Source: a virus (lineage: Duplodnaviria; Caudoviricetes). Taken from it: 64,000 bases of DNA. Positions 33,057 through 64,000 of this stretch are shown here, one piece after another (the first letter of the stretch is position 1; every line of letters starts with the position of its first letter). The stretch covers positions 68,414-132,413 of the IMG/VR virus record IMGVR_UViG_3300033120_000845; one strand, 5' to 3'. The notes beneath the pieces were generated by a model. That model saw only the letters and a program-made list of their open reading frames with translations, did no database searches and was not told the DNA's origin. The position numbers were made by a program, and so were the translations under genes.

Positions 33057-33884
33057 TTAAATTTTAATGTTTTGTAAAGGGGATTGTATTTTACTAATTG
33101 TAGAATGAGAAATATGTAAATATATAGATGTGGTTTTAACAGAACTGTGACCAAGTAAGCGTTGTATCATGTTGATATCAATTCCTGCATCACACATGTG
33201 GCTTGCTGAACAATGTCTAACCAAATGTGTATAGACTCTTTTGTCTAATCCTGCCTTTGTAGCTAATTGTTTAACAACTTGTAACACACTTCTTGAAGAA
33301 TATTGTTCTGAAAATTGCCCGCCAAAAATAAAAGACTTAGTTTTAAATTCGCGGTAATATTCCTCCATTAATTTTAGTAATGTGTCGTTCAATCCCACTT
33401 GCCTGTTTTTTCCACCCTTAGCATTTAGTATATAAATAATCATTCTACTTCTATCAATATTTTCCCACCTTAAATTAATGAGTTCTGAAACACGCAAAGA
33501 ACAAGAGTATAAAAGTGCTAAAATTAACTTATGCTTCCTATTCTCACACATATCAAACATTTTTTGAATTTCCTCTACAGAGAGAATGATTGGCAAGCTT
33601 TTATCTTTCTTTGTATAAGGTATATTTTTAAACTTTTGTTTTTGATTTAAACAAATATCATAAAATAACTTTATAGCAGAATGATAGTTTCTTTGAGTAT
33701 TAGCTTTTATGCAATTGCTTAAAAAATGTTTAATGTCTTGTTCATTGATATTCTTAGGGTGGTCTTTATTAATAGTGGATAAAAACACATCAATGCAACT
33801 ACTGTAATTTTTAATACTGTTTTCTCTATATCCTCTTCGTTTCATTTCCTGAATGAAAGTTTGTTTGTGTTCAGAAGTTTTCAT
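33057..33884 (-). CDS. Tyrosine recombinase/integrase (candidate cassette integrase)
   Basis: N-terminal SAM-like domain (RRGYRENSIKNY); intact catalytic set LRVSE, AKGGKNR, HLVRH, LGH, TTSIY; no IntI-specific insertion visible before the HxxR box. Confidence 0.9.
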   Translation of the reverse strand: MKTSEHKQTFIQEMKRRGYRENSIKNYSSCIDVFLSTINKDHPKNINEQDIKHFLSNCIKANTQRNYHSAIKLFYDICLNQKQKFKNIPYTKKDKSLPIILSVEEIQKMFDMCENRKHKLILALLYSCSLRVSELINLRWENIDRSRMIIYILNAKGGKNRQVGLNDTLLKLMEEYYREFKTKSFIFGGQFSEQYSSRSVLQVVKQLATKAGLDKRVYTHLVRHCSASHMCDAGIDINMIQRLLGHSSVKTTSIYLHISHSTISKIQSPLQNIKI

Positions 33885-33886
33885 TG

Positions 33887-33944
33887 TTAAGTATTGATTT
33901 TATTAGTGTTTTAGAGTGTGTAATACATATTTATGTTAGGCGAT
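33887..33944 (+). other. attI-like primary site of cassette array 1
   Basis: 27-bp motif TTAAGTATTGATTTTATTAGTGTTTTA (33887-33913; 26/27 identical at 62895-62921), then GTT core at 33935 with no preceding hairpin; immediately upstream of the integrase start. Confidence 0.65.
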
Positions 33945-34289
33945 ATTTGGACACAACTCGTTTAACAAATCGAAAGACTTATTAAAATTCTCAAATATTG
34001 GTTCTATATCGTTCCCTGTACTTTCTCCATTTAAGAAAAACTCGCAACTAATACTTTTTTCTTGGCACAAATATTTTATAGCCGAAACAAAGTCTGGACT
34101 ATTTGAATAAAAGTCCATTGATTTATTTAACGACAATGCTTTTTGTGCTTGTATCACCTCATTTAGTGGGTGCAACTGATGCCTACACTTATCTTCAATG
34201 GAAACTCCACAGTAAACACGAATAAAAACATCGCCTAACACAGGTTTTGTGCTATTGCTTTGCTCGGTGTTTAAATTTTGCTCAGTCAT
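33936..34289 (-). CDS. Cassette 1 hypothetical protein
   Basis: Starts inside the attC-like loop; TAA stop is the complement of the GTTA core. Confidence 0.7.
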   Translation of the reverse strand: MTEQNLNTEQSNSTKPVLGDVFIRVYCGVSIEDKCRHQLHPLNEVIQAQKALSLNKSMDFYSNSPDFVSAIKYLCQEKSISCEFFLNGESTGNDIEPIFENFNKSFDLLNELCPNIA

Positions 34290-34371
34290 AATATGTAATG
34301 TTTAGTGTTTAAATTAAAATTTGTTTTATTTTTGGTCGCAACAGACACAAAGCCTGAAAACGTTAGTGGCA
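34230..34371 (+). repeat. attC-like site 1
   Basis: ATCGCCTAAC-a-CAGGTTTTGTGCTATTGC...GCAACAGACACAAAGCCTG-aaaac-GTTAGTGGCA. Confidence 0.85.
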
Positions 34372-34374
34372 ATT

Positions 34375-35079
34375 TTAAGAAGCGTTCGTGTCAATAACAA
34401 TCGGTTCTATAAATGTACCAAGTTCATATTTTTTATTCTCTCCTTTTGGATAAGGTTTAATTTGATAATTAAGTTTTTTCATATACTCTTTTCTTTTAGT
34501 TTTACTTGTTGCAAAATAAATGTATCGGTGTTTAGCACTTCTGTATTTTCTTAAACCTTTTTGTTTTTCATTATCGTAGTGCCTTGAATGTTTTCCACCT
34601 TCAACATATTTGTCAGTTCTCGCTTTTGTCATTCCTGTATAAATCCAATTTGTAGCTTGATAAATATATCCGTTATGGTTCATTTGAGTATCAGCATAAG
34701 AAACTAAAATTAAATCTTTTGCTTTCAATTCATTTAGACACCAAGCCACAAATTTAGATAGTTGTATTTCAATTTCGCCATCAACACAAAGTCGGTTTAA
34801 TTCAAATACCTTTTCGCTATATTCTTTTCCACAAACTCCAATACATAAACTATTACTTGCAGGTTTACCAAATGTGCATACTGCTTTTAAGACATCTTTT
34901 TCATAATAACCAAAAGAAAAAGTAATACTCGGTTTTCTACCTGAATAGTGGCGAGGTAATAAAAAATCAACCGCTTGTTTATACGTTATTGAAGAAAAAC
35001 TGCCACTAACACTGCATATACGCAATGTGGGGTTTAGTGCTTCAACAATGTTTTGGTTTTCAAATAAACTTTTTTGCAT
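34375..35079 (-). CDS. Cassette 2: Mom-like (GNAT-fold) DNA adenine-modification protein
   Basis: FLLPRHYSGR, VCTFGKPAS, FELNRL, VSYADTQMNHNGYIYQATNWIYTG, KHRYIY. Confidence 0.75.
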   Translation of the reverse strand: MQKSLFENQNIVEALNPTLRICSVSGSFSSITYKQAVDFLLPRHYSGRKPSITFSFGYYEKDVLKAVCTFGKPASNSLCIGVCGKEYSEKVFELNRLCVDGEIEIQLSKFVAWCLNELKAKDLILVSYADTQMNHNGYIYQATNWIYTGMTKARTDKYVEGGKHSRHYDNEKQKGLRKYRSAKHRYIYFATSKTKRKEYMKKLNYQIKPYPKGENKKYELGTFIEPIVIDTNAS

Positions 35080-35137
35080 AATTTAAATTTTAGTTTTTAT
35101 AAGTCCCACACTGCGTATATGCTTTTACGTTAGCGGA
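35001..35137 (+). repeat. attC-like site 2
   Basis: TGCCACTAAC-act-GCATATACGCAATGTGGG...CCCACACTGCGTATATGC-ttttac-GTTAGCGGA. Confidence 0.85.
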
Positions 35138-35141
35138 GATA

Positions 35142-35780
35142 TTATTCACGTTTTGTTAAATAAGACTTTAAATGCTCACGATATTCAGGAGTTCTATTTT
35201 TCACAAGAAAATCAATAGTTTTATTCATTTCAATTTTACGATACTCATCTATTCCAATTTCTCTCATTTTTAAAATCACATCGCCTGTTACTCCAAAACA
35301 ACAATCTTCATAATCCGATTGGTTTTTATAATTGTACATTTTAGTTTTGTCTATTTCAATTTCTGAATTGACCAAGCCTTCTAAAGTTGGAAGTTTTTTA
35401 TATCTTTCTATTCTTTCTTTTTTTCTTTGTAAACCTTCAAATATTAAATCCAAGCAATGTTCTTTAGTGTATCCGTAAACGTGTTGTGAAGCCGTTGAAA
35501 AAGAACTATAAATAGAATCACTATAATTAGTTTCTTGCGGATGCCTTTCTTCTACTTTTATTTCCTCATCTAATATTAAATCAAGATATTGCTCTTTAGT
35601 GTGTTTATGGACATACTCATTTAAGTATATTTCTTTTAATTCATTTTGAACTTTTTTAGCAACATCATAATCTAAAAATTCTTTTCTTAAATTTACAAGA
35701 TAATCCTTTCTACAAATACCATCCGCTAACACAGGTTTTGTGCTATTGCTTTGTTCGGTGTTTTCTGAATGTTTGGTCAT
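35142..35780 (-). CDS. Cassette 3 hypothetical protein
   Basis: Starts in the att loop; N-terminus NTEQSNSTKPVL shared with cassette 1. Confidence 0.7.
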   Translation of the reverse strand: MTKHSENTEQSNSTKPVLADGICRKDYLVNLRKEFLDYDVAKKVQNELKEIYLNEYVHKHTKEQYLDLILDEEIKVEERHPQETNYSDSIYSSFSTASQHVYGYTKEHCLDLIFEGLQRKKERIERYKKLPTLEGLVNSEIEIDKTKMYNYKNQSDYEDCCFGVTGDVILKMREIGIDEYRKIEMNKTIDFLVKNRTPEYREHLKSYLTKRE

Positions 35781-35859
35781 AATCTGTATTTTTAGTGTTT
35801 AAATTAATGTTTTGGTCTATTTTTACGCAACAGACACAAAGCCTGATAACGTTAGCAAA
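35722..35859 (+). repeat. attC-like site 3 (near-copy of site 1)
   Basis: TCCGCTAAC-a-CAGGTTTTGTGCTATTGC...GCAACAGACACAAAGCCTG-ataac-GTTAGCAAA. Confidence 0.85.
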
Positions 35860-36304
35860 CAGTTAATTCACGGCCTGTTAAAGCGAAATAAAAGTTTTGA
35901 AGTTGATGAACATATTTTACAACATCAAAAAAAGTAGAGCCTTGAAATCTTAATCCAAAAGTTTTTAAATTATGTTTTGGCAAAAAATAATCAAATCTTG
36001 TGTCTTTTTTCAACTCGTATCTTAATGTAAACTCGTTATCAATTATTTTTTCAAATCCGAATTTCATTAACCATTCCTCATTTATTTCAATCGGTTGATA
36101 ATCTTCGTTCATTTCGTGTTTTATTCCAAAAATCCGTAAATCATCATAGTCAATTTCTGAAACTTCAAGCCATTCTTTGCGTTCATCCATTTTATCAACA
36201 ATTCTATAATTTATCAAATTACCTATTCTAAACTCCTTATCCGTAACCGATTTGCTAACATCGGTTTTGACTAATGCCTTACTTGGTTTTGTGCTTTTAC
36301 TCAT
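35852..36304 (-). CDS. Cassette 4: Bacteroidota-phage-type hypothetical protein
   Basis: EFRIGNL...QPIEINEEWLMKFGF...VHQLQNFYFALTGREL; stop within the GTTA core. Confidence 0.7.
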   Translation of the reverse strand: MSKSTKPSKALVKTDVSKSVTDKEFRIGNLINYRIVDKMDERKEWLEVSEIDYDDLRIFGIKHEMNEDYQPIEINEEWLMKFGFEKIIDNEFTLRYELKKDTRFDYFLPKHNLKTFGLRFQGSTFFDVVKYVHQLQNFYFALTGRELTVC

Positions 36305-36389
36305 TGGTTTTTAATTTAAAAATTAGTTTGTGCTTTTGTGTCTAGTCTTTAATTTACGGCACTAGACAAAGCCGAGAACCGTTATGCAC
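36251..36389 (+). repeat. attC-like site 4
   Basis: TTTGCTAAC-a-TCGGTTTTGACTAATGCC...GGCACTAGACAAAGCCGA-gaacc-GTTATGCAC. Confidence 0.85.
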
Positions 36390-36408
36390 AAGCACTACGT
36401 TATCGTTT

Positions 36409-37155
36409 TCAAATGAAATTTACGTTATAGACTAAATCCTTTTCTTCCTTGTTTATAATGTATTTTCCTGCTTCAAAATCACTTCTTACCCATTTAGCAA
36501 GAAAATCTACTTCGCCTTTTCTTTCAACTCTATAAACCATTCCTTCGGGTTTTTCATCAGGTGTAATTCCGTATGTTTTTTTGTTTAGTTCTGGTAATAT
36601 ATTTTCAACAGTTTCTGATTTTCCTCTGTGTAATAGTCTTGGAAGTTGTATTTCATATTTATTATAAAAACTATCCAAAACATCAAAACTGCTTCTTTGG
36701 TTATTTGCTGTAAAATGGTCAAAGAAAACTATCGGTTGTAATCGGGTATCAATATTATATTTAATTCCGTGTGCTTGCGCTAACCATTCTCCTGTAATTC
36801 TTTCTCCATTTTTTAACAAATCCATCCAAGTCATTATATTTTTATAAACCCAATCACTAAATAAATGATGTTGCTTGTAAGGGCTTGTATTTGCAATATA
36901 TCCACTTCTAGTAAGTGCAACTATTCTATTGTCAATTTTTCCAATTCCTACATTAGAACCGTCATATTTTTCAAAGACAAAAATTTCATCGTTTTTATCT
37001 CTAACTTTTACAGTTAAAATTCTTTCTTGTCCTTTATCTATAAAATGGTCGCCAGTTCCTAAATTACTATTTGATAAATGAGGAATTGAACCGTAATTTT
37101 TAATACCTAATGGTTTCATAAGTTCATTTATTTTTAAAATACCGTGCCAGTGCAT
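36409..37155 (-). CDS. Cassette 5: ATP-dependent RNA ligase-family protein (start may be 37119)
   Basis: Motif I EKYDGSN; GEW; FFD; PEGMVYR; AKWVR. Confidence 0.8.
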   Translation of the reverse strand: MHWHGILKINELMKPLGIKNYGSIPHLSNSNLGTGDHFIDKGQERILTVKVRDKNDEIFVFEKYDGSNVGIGKIDNRIVALTRSGYIANTSPYKQHHLFSDWVYKNIMTWMDLLKNGERITGEWLAQAHGIKYNIDTRLQPIVFFDHFTANNQRSSFDVLDSFYNKYEIQLPRLLHRGKSETVENILPELNKKTYGITPDEKPEGMVYRVERKGEVDFLAKWVRSDFEAGKYIINKEEKDLVYNVNFI

Positions 37156-37287
37156 AACAGCAATTTTGCGCTATTACCGTTTTAGGCTTTGGGTTATGTT
37201 AATTTTGTATTTGTTAATATTATTTCTTAATCAATGATTTCGGCTTTCTTATCGGTAACAGTCGCAAAGTTGCAAAACGTTATGCGC
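37150..37287 (+). repeat. attC-like site 5
   Basis: GTGCATAAC-a-GCAATTTTGCGCTATTACCG...CGGTAACAGTCGCAAAGTTGC-aaaac-GTTATGCGC. Confidence 0.85.
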
Positions 37288-38301
37288 AACCTTTCGTAAT
37301 CGTTTCCATAATACGATTTTGCGCTATATCGAAATAGTTTTTATCCATTTCTATTCCAATAAATTTACGGTTAGTGTTTACGCAAGCTACTCCAGTACTA
37401 CCTGAACCCATAGTAAAATCTAAAACAGTTTCACTTTCATTTGTATATGTTTTTATTAAGTACTCCATTAAATCTAATGGTTTTTGTGTTGGATGTACCC
37501 TTAGTTTAACCCTAAAATTAAAATTAAGTATATTGGTATTTCCAAAAGTACTGTTGTAAACTTCCTCTATTTCTTTATATTCAAATAAACCTAATGGTTC
37601 TTTTAATTTATTCCACATTTCCATAGTAGGAACTTGTCCGCATTTATTATTCCCAGTATAAATACTCCACATTCCACCTCCATTTTTAGCAACTCCAAGT
37701 AGACTATGAAAATCATCTTTACCTAAACCGTATTTTAAACAAGCTTCTTTTTTATTACTTTTGCTATTTTTGGTCTTGCATTTTTAGTATTCACATTTAT
37801 CAGCTCACATATATTTGGGTGCATTTTATATTTACCAATATTCCTGCCACCTAAAACTTGTTTTCCTTTATTTATAAACAGTAATTCTCTGTGTATTAAG
37901 TTGTTTTTTAATAAATTTGGATATATAAACTCTTGGGTTTTATGTGAACCAAATATAATTAATCTGCCACCACTTCGTAATGTTCTTGAACATTCTGTTA
38001 TTACACTATTAAAAAAAATATTAGCTTCATTAAATGTTTTATTGTCCCACGATTCATTAACCATACCAATGTAAGGTGGGTCAACAATAACAGCATCAAT
38101 ACTTCCATCAGGTATTTTCTTCATCAATTCAAGACAATTTCCGTTCCACAATTCAGGCAGCGCATAACAGCGGTTTGGAGCAATTGCCGTTTCATTTTCA
38201 AATAAACTTTCTTGCATAATATCAAATTTTGTTTTCATAATTAATTTTTCGGTACGGCAACTGCACCAAGCCGTAGGCGTTATAATAAACTTAACACACA
38301 A
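37280..38301 (-). CDS. Cassette 6: beta-class N6A/N4C DNA methyltransferase split by a -1 frameshift at 37747-37753 (true start probably near 38217-38238)
   Basis: Upstream ORF has GNCLELMK..IDAVIVDPPY; downstream ORF has HPTQKP..VLDFTMGSGSTG..FIGIE; the -1 frame is open across the junction. Confidence 0.8.
38160..38285 (+). repeat. attC-like site 6
   Basis: GCGCATAAC-ag-CGGTTTGGAGCAATTGCCGT...ACGGCAACTGCACCAAGCCG-taggc-GTTATAA. Confidence 0.85.
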
Positions 38302-62879: not shown

Positions 62880-62894
62880 ACTATTGTGGTAATT

Positions 62895-62956
62895 TTAAGT
62901 GTTGATTTTATTAGTGTTTTACCACATTGGTTGCGTCAATGAGCGAGTTAAACGAT
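62895..62956 (+). other. attI-like site of cassette array 2
   Basis: TTAAGTGTTGATTTTATTAGTGTTTTA (62895-62921), then GTTAAACGAT at 62947. Confidence 0.6.
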
Positions 62957-62967
62957 AGTTTTTCAAA

Positions 62968-63399
62968 CTATACGGATAAACCTAATTGATTAATAGCATT
63001 AGTGTTTAATTCAAACTCAAAATCGAATCCTAATAAATCCTCAACAAGTTCATTTTTGCTTATCCAAAATCTTTCTTCGCCATCACTATCTTTGTATGTA
63101 GTTTCGAACATATTTTCCCCAACTTCAAAATCTGTGAAACAATCAAAGAAAACGCTTCCTTTTGCTTCATTATAAACCCCTAATTCGGCTTTATAGTCAA
63201 ATTCAGTGGAAAAATGGATTCTTTCAGGTTCTTCCAAAATTCTTTCCGATTCATCTGTTACAGCAAACATTTTAAGTGTTATAGGCTGTTTTAAAAAATT
63301 AGCGTAATTACTAATCTTTGTAAGCATTTTTACCTCGTCATAAGGTGGATTTTCATTTAATAAATTCAAACAAAAATCTGTCATTGGAATTAGTTTCAT
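62968..63399 (-). CDS. Cassette hypothetical protein (Bacteroidota-phage type)
   Basis: MKLIPMTDF...NYANFLKQP..LKMF. Confidence 0.65.
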   Translation of the reverse strand: MKLIPMTDFCLNLLNENPPYDEVKMLTKISNYANFLKQPITLKMFAVTDESERILEEPERIHFSTEFDYKAELGVYNEAKGSVFFDCFTDFEVGENMFETTYKDSDGEERFWISKNELVEDLLGFDFEFELNTNAINQLGLSV

Positions 63400-63422
63400 A
63401 ATCTATTTGTGTTAATTAAACC

Positions 63423-63522
63423 ATCGTTTAACAAAGGTTTGGCGCAATAAAGCCAACACCTTCTGATTAATATTCTTGTTTTTCTAAGGCTTTACTTCGC
63501 CAAGCCTCTGGACGTTATAAGC
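63423..63522 (+). repeat. attC-like site 7
   Basis: ATCGTTTAAC-aa-AGGTTTGGCGCAATAAAGCC...GGCTTTACTTCGCCAAGCCT-ctggac-GTTATAAGC. Confidence 0.85.
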
Positions 63523-64000
63523 AAGCTGCTACGTTCCTGCTCCGAATGAAAGTTCCCCATTGTTCAGCCATAGCTTTTGCCACCCCACTAAAAGTTTTTG
63601 AGCTTTCCTTTTGGCTTATATTTACAAATTGGTATTTCTGTCCTCGTTTCTTCCCTCCTGTATTGCTCGGCAAATACGGCTTATAGTTGCTCTTAATATC
63701 AGTCGGCTTTAATAGTGGCAAATTTTTCAACCACAATAATGTTCGCTTACTAAATTCGTGTCCATATTCGTAGGGCTGTATCGCTTGGTCTTGTTTTGGC
63801 AATTCAACTACTTTTAATGGTGTTGGATTTTCAATAGCAATATATTCAATCGGTGCATTTAGTAGTTGTAAAAACAAGTCCTTAGCTTCCATTGCTTTTG
63901 CGTATCTGTCTTGGCACAAATTTCCTGCCGTTGGATACATCCATCTTGCTCCAGCCCTACTCATATAAGTACAAGGTGGGTGTGCAATCATCATATCATA
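63515..64000 (-). CDS. Cassette gene: C5-cytosine DNA methyltransferase-like protein (5'-partial)
   Basis: DMMIAHPPCTY, IAIENP, IQPYEYGH..SKRTLLWL, SKTFSGVAKAMAEQWG; stop within the GTTA core. Confidence 0.75.
   Translation of the reverse strand, partial: YDMMIAHPPCTYMSRAGARWMYPTAGNLCQDRYAKAMEAKDLFLQLLNAPIEYIAIENPTPLKVVELPKQDQAIQPYEYGHEFSKRTLLWLKNLPLLKPTDIKSNYKPYLPSNTGGKKRGQKYQFVNISQKESSKTFSGVAKAMAEQWGTFIRSRNVAACL

Follow-up and report, generated by a model that had tools for sequence, protein, structure and literature searches.

A phage-borne, probably integron-like gene-capture locus with a Xer-like recombinase in a Flavobacterium-type phage

Integrons, which are defined by the integrase IntI, combine a tyrosine recombinase gene that has an insertion site (attI) at its 5' end with single-gene cassettes lying between imperfect palindromes (attC) with AAC...GTT ends. 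Here we describe a locus with the same general organization in a 64,000-nucleotide window of viral DNA, namely the last 64 kb of the 132,413-bp IMG/VR virus record IMGVR_UViG_3300033120_000845 (completeness estimate 92%), in which the gene of a 275-aa Xer-like tyrosine recombinase adjoins an array of six cassette-like units. The window has a GC content of 31% and encodes virion proteins, a DNA polymerase, a DnaB-like helicase and a ribonucleotide reductase; the source phage is Flavobacterium-type. We propose, with a probability of roughly 0.8, that this locus is a phage-borne integron-like gene-capture platform whose Xer-like recombinase would act on folded cassette sites.

Besides integrons themselves, the sedentary chromosomal ones above all, two described systems come closest. 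Qi et al. 2023 reported integrase-less attC clusters (CALINs) in virulent phages, including Polaribacter phage P12002L, and showed that a P12002L hairpin is recombined by IntI1 at G|TT (PMC9892861). No cognate recombinase or attI was reported, the two sites in P12002L had apparently divergent directions, and neither the polarity, nor the breadth of the site family, nor a Xer-like enzyme was described in that work (PMC9892861). As in the P12002L CALIN, attC-like sites lie here around DNA methyltransferase genes in a Flavobacteriia phage. In P12002L itself (our locus L255, 38036-38940), we found that TAACA...CGTTA hairpins of about 55-60 nt flank the methyltransferase gene gp54, with the end repeat GTTACCTA/TAGGTAAC. 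Since these short hairpins are of the same design as those described below, they tie the published CALIN to the present site family.

The second system, rAID-1 of Bacteroidales, consists of an XerD-family recombinase beside long co-directional arrays of small genes acquired horizontally, and its intergenic repeats were called reminiscent of integrons by the authors (Ross et al. 2019, bioRxiv 10.1101/471110). Compared by layout and cargo, rAID-1 and the phage locus share a Xer-type recombinase beside an array and belong to the same phylum. However, the rAID-1 array follows the stop codon of its recombinase gene, whereas the present one is situated upstream of the start of the recombinase gene; moreover, rAID-1 is chromosomal and carries interbacterial immunity genes, whereas the present array is phage-borne and carries predicted anti-restriction genes.

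A further parallel is CTX phage integration, in which XerCD acts on a single-stranded DNA hairpin at dif and one strand is exchanged. This resembles our proposal in that a Xer-type enzyme would meet folded single-stranded phage DNA, but in the CTX case host enzymes integrate the whole phage genome at chromosomal dif, without cassettes or arrays. The promoter-stem-loop (PeSL) cassettes of T4-like phages, which are proposed to shuffle through homology between the elements they share, differ as well, since here cassette-specific end repeats and a linked recombinase are present. Integron surveys with IntegronFinder found almost none in Bacteroidetes (PMC9024848), and it is in Bacteroidota and their phages that the integron-like system described here resides. 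In our literature search, to which a first-pass annotation of this DNA had left the question of novelty, we found no paper on a platform that is carried by a phage and combines flipped cassettes with an attI and a Xer-like recombinase of its own. Partial precedents are available (PMC9892861; bioRxiv 10.1101/471110).

The recombinase gene and the array are laid out as follows (positions are those of the window).

33057..33884, minus strand: Xer-like tyrosine recombinase, 275 aa (PF00589 at 1.3e-36; PF13495)
33885..33937, no strand: attI-like junction, 51 nt from the recombinase ATG to the first G|TT
33936..34362, minus strand: cassette 1, 117-aa protein of unknown function; open reading frame (ORF) 33936-34289 and hairpin 34236-34365; repeat GTTAGGCGAT/ATCGCCTAAC
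34363..35129, minus strand: cassette 2, predicted Mom-like DNA modification protein; ORF 34375-35079 and hairpin 35007-35132; 10-bp repeat
35130..35851, minus strand: cassette 3, 212-aa protein of unknown function; ORF 35142-35780 and hairpin 35727-35854; 9-bp repeat
35852..36381, minus strand: cassette 4, 150-aa protein; ORF 35852-36304 and hairpin 36256-36384; 9-bp repeat
36382..37279, minus strand: cassette 5, predicted RNA ligase; ORF 36409-37155 and hairpin 37155-37282
37280..38279, minus strand: cassette 6, predicted N6/N4 DNA methyltransferase in two reading frames, 37280-37672 and 37735-38301, and hairpin 38165-38282; 9-bp repeat

Positions 33935-38282 hold six units, in each of which a segment of 9-10 bp starting at GTT has its exact reverse complement, ending in TAAC, beyond the gene (pairs 33935/34230, 34362/35001, 35129/35722, 35851/36251, 36381/37150 and 37279/38160). 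Counted from GTT, the inverted repeats of units 1-6 measure 10, 10, 9, 9, 9 and 9 bp; all are perfect and, when checked for a longer match, none extended beyond its 9-10 bp. The first-pass annotation had claimed six tandem units with exact inverted repeats and a hairpin that is complete only in a circle, and on both counts it agrees with what we found: all six pairs lie where it placed them, and the cassette ends are complementary in 6/6, the match never reaching further. Complementary cassette ends are common to integrons and to this phage, and the site would therefore be complete only in the circle.

From the right-hand repeat of each unit to the next GTT extends a hairpin of 118-130 nt (about 125) with the invariant ends TAACA...CGTTA. 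Each of the six folds on either strand, the minus strand (mRNA sense) being the more stable in 6/6. The six array genes all occupy the minus strand, with transcription running toward the recombinase. They have their start codons inside the right-hand hairpin (ATG at 34289, 35079, 35780, 36304, 37155 and 38217/38238), and they cross the hairpin arm in three different reading frames. The unrelated proteins of cassettes 1 and 3 have in common an N-terminal leader, MT..TEQSNSTKPVL, encoded in the hairpins (34236-34289 and 35727-35780), and those of cassettes 2 and 6, likewise unrelated, a leader MQ[KE]SLFEN (35007-35079 and 38165-38238).

The recombinase is the sole PF00589 match in the whole genome, and its catalytic residues R131, K156, H220, R223, H246 and Y255 correspond to the R-K-H-R-H/W-Y set of tyrosine recombinases, in line with the intact R-K-HxxR-H-Y set noted at first pass. 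Its ATG lies at a near-constant distance from the first GTT, 51 nt in most of the seven loci that we retrieved by their recombinase. The attI-like stretch in between is conserved and ends with ...ACATATnTAT|GTTA, and past the GTT the sequence varies by locus, as expected of cassette insertion at this point. The conserved 51-nt stretch thus sits where an integron has its attI, at the 5' end of the integrase gene.

This association was found again in other phages. Two IMG/VR phages (L009 and L010), with recombinases 80% and 86% identical to the present one and no other gene in common with this phage, have hairpin arrays on the same recombinase side and with the same polarity as here, and the genes flanking their recombinases are unrelated to genes of the present phage. 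Four further look-ups that started from the recombinase (67-89% identity) gave five loci, all in phage contexts with arrays, two of which (L251 and L252) have variant GTTG cores, seen by eye. Altogether, the recombinase 5' end adjoins the array with the same polarity in 7/7 of these loci. In addition, 11 loci fetched by the hairpin pattern alone carry a homolog (31-64% identity), whose 5' end faces the array with the same polarity in 10/11, the remaining locus (L114) being cut at its end. Comparison of cassette content among related phages, a check proposed at first pass, revealed that phages whose recombinases are 80-89% identical carry wholly different cassettes behind the same attI-like stretch. 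On two Flavobacterium chromosomes (L259 and L256), the same hairpins are found downstream of a recombinase 35-39% identical to that of the phage, which is the rAID-1 layout, and at other bacterial loci the array is at the recombinase 5' side, as in the phage.

Evidence of cassette movement comes from the Flavobacterium phages mumin6-1 and mumin6-3, whose only difference over the compared region is a 506-bp indel. It comprises one gene body and its right-hand hairpin, and both of its borders fall within a shared AACGTTA. A fixed gene order with no changes at GTT borders, which the first-pass annotation had named as evidence that would speak against mobile cassettes, is contradicted by this one-cassette difference. 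Furthermore, bodies that are 100% identical but stand in different contexts have right hairpins with an identity of 0.99-1.00 and left hairpins with one of 0.47-0.71. Of 24 homologous body pairs, 8 show clearly better conservation of the right hairpin and 0 of the left. Because identical bodies travel with the right hairpin, the cassette is taken to be a gene plus the hairpin that heads it. The opposite assignment, a left hairpin plus body, had been suggested by the side of the extra bases, and we rejected it on the basis of the mumin indel and the hairpin linkage.

Wastewater, sludge and river contigs of other studies also contain individual cassettes of the present array (identity of at least 90%), beginning exactly at 33935, 34362 and 35129. 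A 434-nt contig from another study is cassette 1, spanning exactly 33935-34365; a contig of another metagenome matches cassette 2 over 34362-35017, and one of another study matches cassette 3 over 35129-35740. Genes of the F. psychrophilum phages 2A, 6H and FPSV share 93.6% identity with the RNA-ligase body, with homology that starts at the GTT core (CGTTATGCAC) and ends 12 nt past TAAC (GTGCATAAC), and the body of cassette 3 is 85.9% identical to a cassette of another locus (L015), the hairpins differing on both sides. Taken together, the comparative evidence supports site-specific mobility of the cassettes.

The hairpin family is specific: a scanner that accepts TAACA...CGTTA where the cores stand 60 nt or more apart and the DNA folds at -6.5 kcal/mol or better found 13 hairpins in the 132-kb genome and 0 in three shuffles of it. 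The short P12002L sites, like those of L251 and L252 with their GTTG cores, fall outside these requirements and were seen by eye. The strict hairpin pattern occurs in at least 118 viral contigs and in at least 120 genomes among the matches listed, almost all of Bacteroidota. We scored an end repeat where at least 8 bp counted from GTT were complementary and the neighbouring hairpins were less than 3 kb apart, which is expected by chance in about 0.4%; this holds for 173/245 neighbouring pairs in viral loci and for 83/115 in bacterial loci. Hence the integron-like system proposed at first pass is not confined to this phage.

Cassette polarity differs between the two groups. In viral loci, 149 of 158 cassettes are flipped, that is, the gene is encoded on the other strand and begins within the hairpin, and 9 are classical; in bacterial loci, 64 of 74 are classical, with the gene followed by the site, and 10 are otherwise. 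One sequence type of hairpin can head unrelated genes. The integron layout assigned to this locus at first pass is therefore correct for the attI beside the recombinase 5' end, but not for the cassettes: integron ORFs precede their attC and are transcribed away from intI, sharing one promoter, whereas in the viral loci the hairpin stands ahead of the gene and includes its start codon, with the genes oriented toward the recombinase.

Like attC, the sites are kept in structure and not in sequence, with compensatory changes and a crossover at G|TT. In an alignment of 50 phage and bacterial sites, the stem columns 12-21/122-131 covary with up to four Watson-Crick types, most pairs having no unpaired cell at all (column pair 12/131: GC 22, UA 12, CG 10, AU 6, unpaired 0). 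The covariation score was 0.473 against 0.134 in shuffles, and 0/500 shuffles reached 0.473. RNAalifold returned no structure on the raw MAFFT alignment, in which the loops misaligned the arms, and returned one on a length-matched alignment.

The geometry of the sites sets them apart from attC. The latter has a 5/5 spacer and, on its bottom strand, an extrahelical G and T, whereas here the spacers are asymmetric, 1 nt against 5 nt, with a single bulged base and two conserved non-Watson-Crick positions: columns 16/127 keep a T.G, and column 25 is invariably A and faces column 117, which is mostly C. We considered the G at column 127 as an extrahelical base and rejected this, since it faces a conserved T and forms a plus-strand T.G pair in the alignment. 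Rfam has no family for these sites; only WsnRNA46 comes near, scoring 27.6 bits where the gathering score is 65.3. This weak match to a Wolbachia small RNA is full-length and concerns hairpin 6 (window 38150-38295). In the loop (columns ~36-100), (T)TAGTG-like words recur at like spacing in phage and bacterial sites, and these may be accessory binding sites.

Considering the above results, the following model may be proposed. A cassette would be one gene together with the preceding ~125-nt imperfect palindrome that holds its 5' leader as well as its start codon. The recombinase, whose gene lies 51 nt from the insertion point, would exchange strands at G|TT (AA|C on the opposite strand) of the folded site. 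Cassettes would be excised as circles, in which the 9-10 bp ends pair and complete the site, and the circles would be inserted at the attI-like junction or at other hairpins. In this way, unrelated Flavobacteriia phages and host chromosomes could trade small accessory genes. In tyrosine recombinases, cleavage takes place at the 5' edge of the central region. Combined with the position of the crossover, within AACGTTA and next to the terminal 4-bp box, this leads us to infer that the minus (coding) strand recombines in folded form, as 5'-...TAA|C-GTTTT-; it is also the strand with the more stable fold in all six sites. Like the strand used, catalysis by the 275-aa recombinase and the single-stranded folded intermediate are read from sequence comparisons and are put forward here as probable steps.

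Several observations weigh against this model. Many array phages (e.g. mumin and morran) are without such a recombinase, so that another enzyme or a co-infecting element must act there, and beside array B, a second array of the same genome presented below, we found no recombinase and no conserved attI. The older cassettes, i.e. the RNA ligase (93.6%) and cassette 3 (86%), share neither flanking hairpin with their relatives, and their homology stops 7-12 nt past TAAC, inside the arm; one G|TT crossover alone leaves these ends unexplained. Exchange or conversion between hairpins, or the use of both strands, may account for this. The joints on metagenome contigs, flanked by just 20-29 nt, were not used as evidence for circles or deletions. 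Finally, the hairpins behind the neighbour-pair counts and the covariation alignment had been picked by folding energy, for which reason we also examined 263 matches to the pattern alone: their two free stem bases are complementary in 152/263, against about 16 expected by chance.

Among the alternatives, the one that survives best accepts site-specific cassettes and assigns their movement to a host enzyme, either the array-associated recombinases of Bacteroidota chromosomes or XerC/D, the local recombinase being then a lysogeny integrase or a dimer-resolving Xer. This explanation, which we regard as unlikely, would accommodate both the arrays without any recombinase, common in phages, and the distance of array B from the recombinase. 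It also finds candidates, as hairpin-bearing Flavobacterium genomes have genes both for array-linked relatives (35-39% identity) and for housekeeping Xer proteins, and the best family match of the phage enzyme is itself a Xer model (XerA_Arch in NCBIfam, 206.8 bits, cut-off 220). It does not, however, account for the near-constant distance (mostly 51 nt) and polarity toward the first GTT across homologs of 31-89% identity in unrelated backbones, nor for a sequence that is conserved solely up to the crossover point, and the locus can be explained without invoking an attP-like feature or a tRNA target. Moreover, a quick tree, whose deep branches do not resolve, clusters 16/17 phage enzymes (approximate likelihood-ratio test, aLRT, 84) beside the array-associated enzymes of Bacteroidota chromosomes and outside the clade of Flavobacterium housekeeping Xer (aLRT 100); the split that sets the array-associated enzymes apart, joining them with the phage enzymes, has an aLRT of only 30.

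A second alternative would make the hairpins expression signals (leaders, terminators or RNA-processing sites) and have the genes shuffled by homologous or microhomology recombination, in a PeSL-like manner and without a dedicated recombinase. Every phage hairpin does contain a start codon and a conserved leader, same-type hairpins do head unrelated genes, the mRNA-sense minus strand is the better folder throughout, and the homology of older cassettes ends within the hairpin arm and not at the core. Yet this alternative leaves unexplained why the perfect end repeats differ from cassette to cassette, why the borders of the mumin indel fall within a 7-nt core and why the array is associated with a recombinase. 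Since the sites of bacterial arrays lie behind genes (64 vs 10), a role at gene starts is not general, and we consider this explanation even less likely than movement by a host enzyme.

As for the enzyme of the proposed gene-capture platform, profile scores, alignment and tree placement agree that it is not an IntI. The IntI model TIGR02249 gave 165.1 bits in two stretches (cut-off 265), the weak match that had been anticipated at first pass, and NF011946 gave 83.1 bits (cut-off 435). The Xer equivalog cut-offs, that of XerA included, were not reached either (XerD 166.9 bits, cut-off 329.6; XerC 156.2 bits, cut-off 335). In the alignment with VchIntIA, 20 query residues (176-195) stand opposite 62 IntI residues (180-241); the IntI-specific insertion of about 40 aa, which reads extrahelical bases, is therefore absent, as the first-pass annotation had noticed. 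In integron integrases this additional domain is a stretch of about 35-60 aa inserted close to the catalytic core. The best 120 of 2251 relatives are all 242-279 aa long, almost all of them 275-279, and identity is 23% to IntI1, which spans 297 aa against 250 aa of the query, and 26% to IntI2. In the quick tree, the phage enzymes also fall outside the IntI clade (aLRT 99). A classical integron whose IntI merely looks divergent is thus very improbable: the AAC...GTT cores, the attI beside the recombinase gene 5' end, a C-terminal tail that aligns with VchIntIA and the score that TIGR02249 still gives would suit it, but scores under both IntI cut-offs, the missing insertion, the short relatives, the identities of 23% to IntI1 and 26% to IntI2, the position in the tree, the 1/5 spacer geometry and the flipped cassettes would not.

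We further believe, with less confidence than in the platform itself but still considering it probable, that the locus belongs to an IntI-independent second integron lineage with short Xer-like recombinases, spread over Bacteroidota chromosomes and phages, in which phages would use flipped cassettes, with the site doubling as a leader, to trade anti-restriction and other accessory genes among themselves and with their hosts. If so, the IntI insertion would be dispensable for recombining folded sites, and IntI-based surveys would have missed a gene-capture system of a whole phylum. The platform would place integron logic, i.e. an enzyme, an insertion site and mobile single-gene cassettes, on a different recombinase carried by a phage, and whether an IntI domain is needed to recombine folded DNA becomes testable. 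It would also explain directly how the accessory regions of Flavobacteriia phages come to be mosaic, and it could account for the differences in methyltransferase content among the mumin phages, which Nilsson et al. linked to their plating efficiency (PMC7077304). In addition, a compact 275-aa enzyme with structure-defined sites is a possible recombination tool.

Regarding the cargo, the array appears to hold mostly DNA-modification and repair genes, a kind that counters host restriction, their roles being predicted. Restriction of phage DNA is known to be prevented by Mom and by methyltransferases, and phages are known to use RNA ligases to repair cleaved tRNA. The cassette 2 protein matches PF25680 at 4.8e-29 and phrog_1384 at 1.2e-57, that of cassette 4 matches phrog_10066 at 1.7e-19 and that of cassette 5 matches PF09414 at 1.4e-23; profile searches with the cassette 1 protein gave no family match. 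Both halves of the cassette 6 methyltransferase match PF01555, and its in-frame ATGs at 38217 and 38238 are inside the hairpin. The gene is split near an A-run (37672-37735), which may reflect a pseudogene, a slippery site or an assembly error; contigs of the source sample contain no variant at this split.

The same genome contains a second array, at a distance from the recombinase.

62947..64000, resuming at genome 1-2745, minus strand: array B; repeat GTTAAACGAT/ATCGTTTAAC; hairpin 63429-63517

Array B spans the contig ends and has six hairpins in all, five of them at the genome left end, chained by 9-10 bp inverted repeats. A motif of 28-30 nt, TTAAGT[AG]TTGATTTTATTAGTGTTTTA, is present at both array starts (window 33886-33913 and 62894-62921), and the sequence from this motif to the first GTT differs between the two arrays. 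The motif could be a promoter, a leader or an accessory binding site. We rejected it as a common attI of both arrays, given that the core-proximal parts differ and that similar leaders head other genes. A solitary hairpin of the same family is located at genome 15531-15654, with no end-repeat partner on either side. The contig ends (genome 61-548 and window 63513-64000) carry 92.8% identical copies of a gene for a 214-aa methyltransferase-like protein, and this duplication may represent a diverged terminal repeat, two cassettes or a strain-variant assembly.

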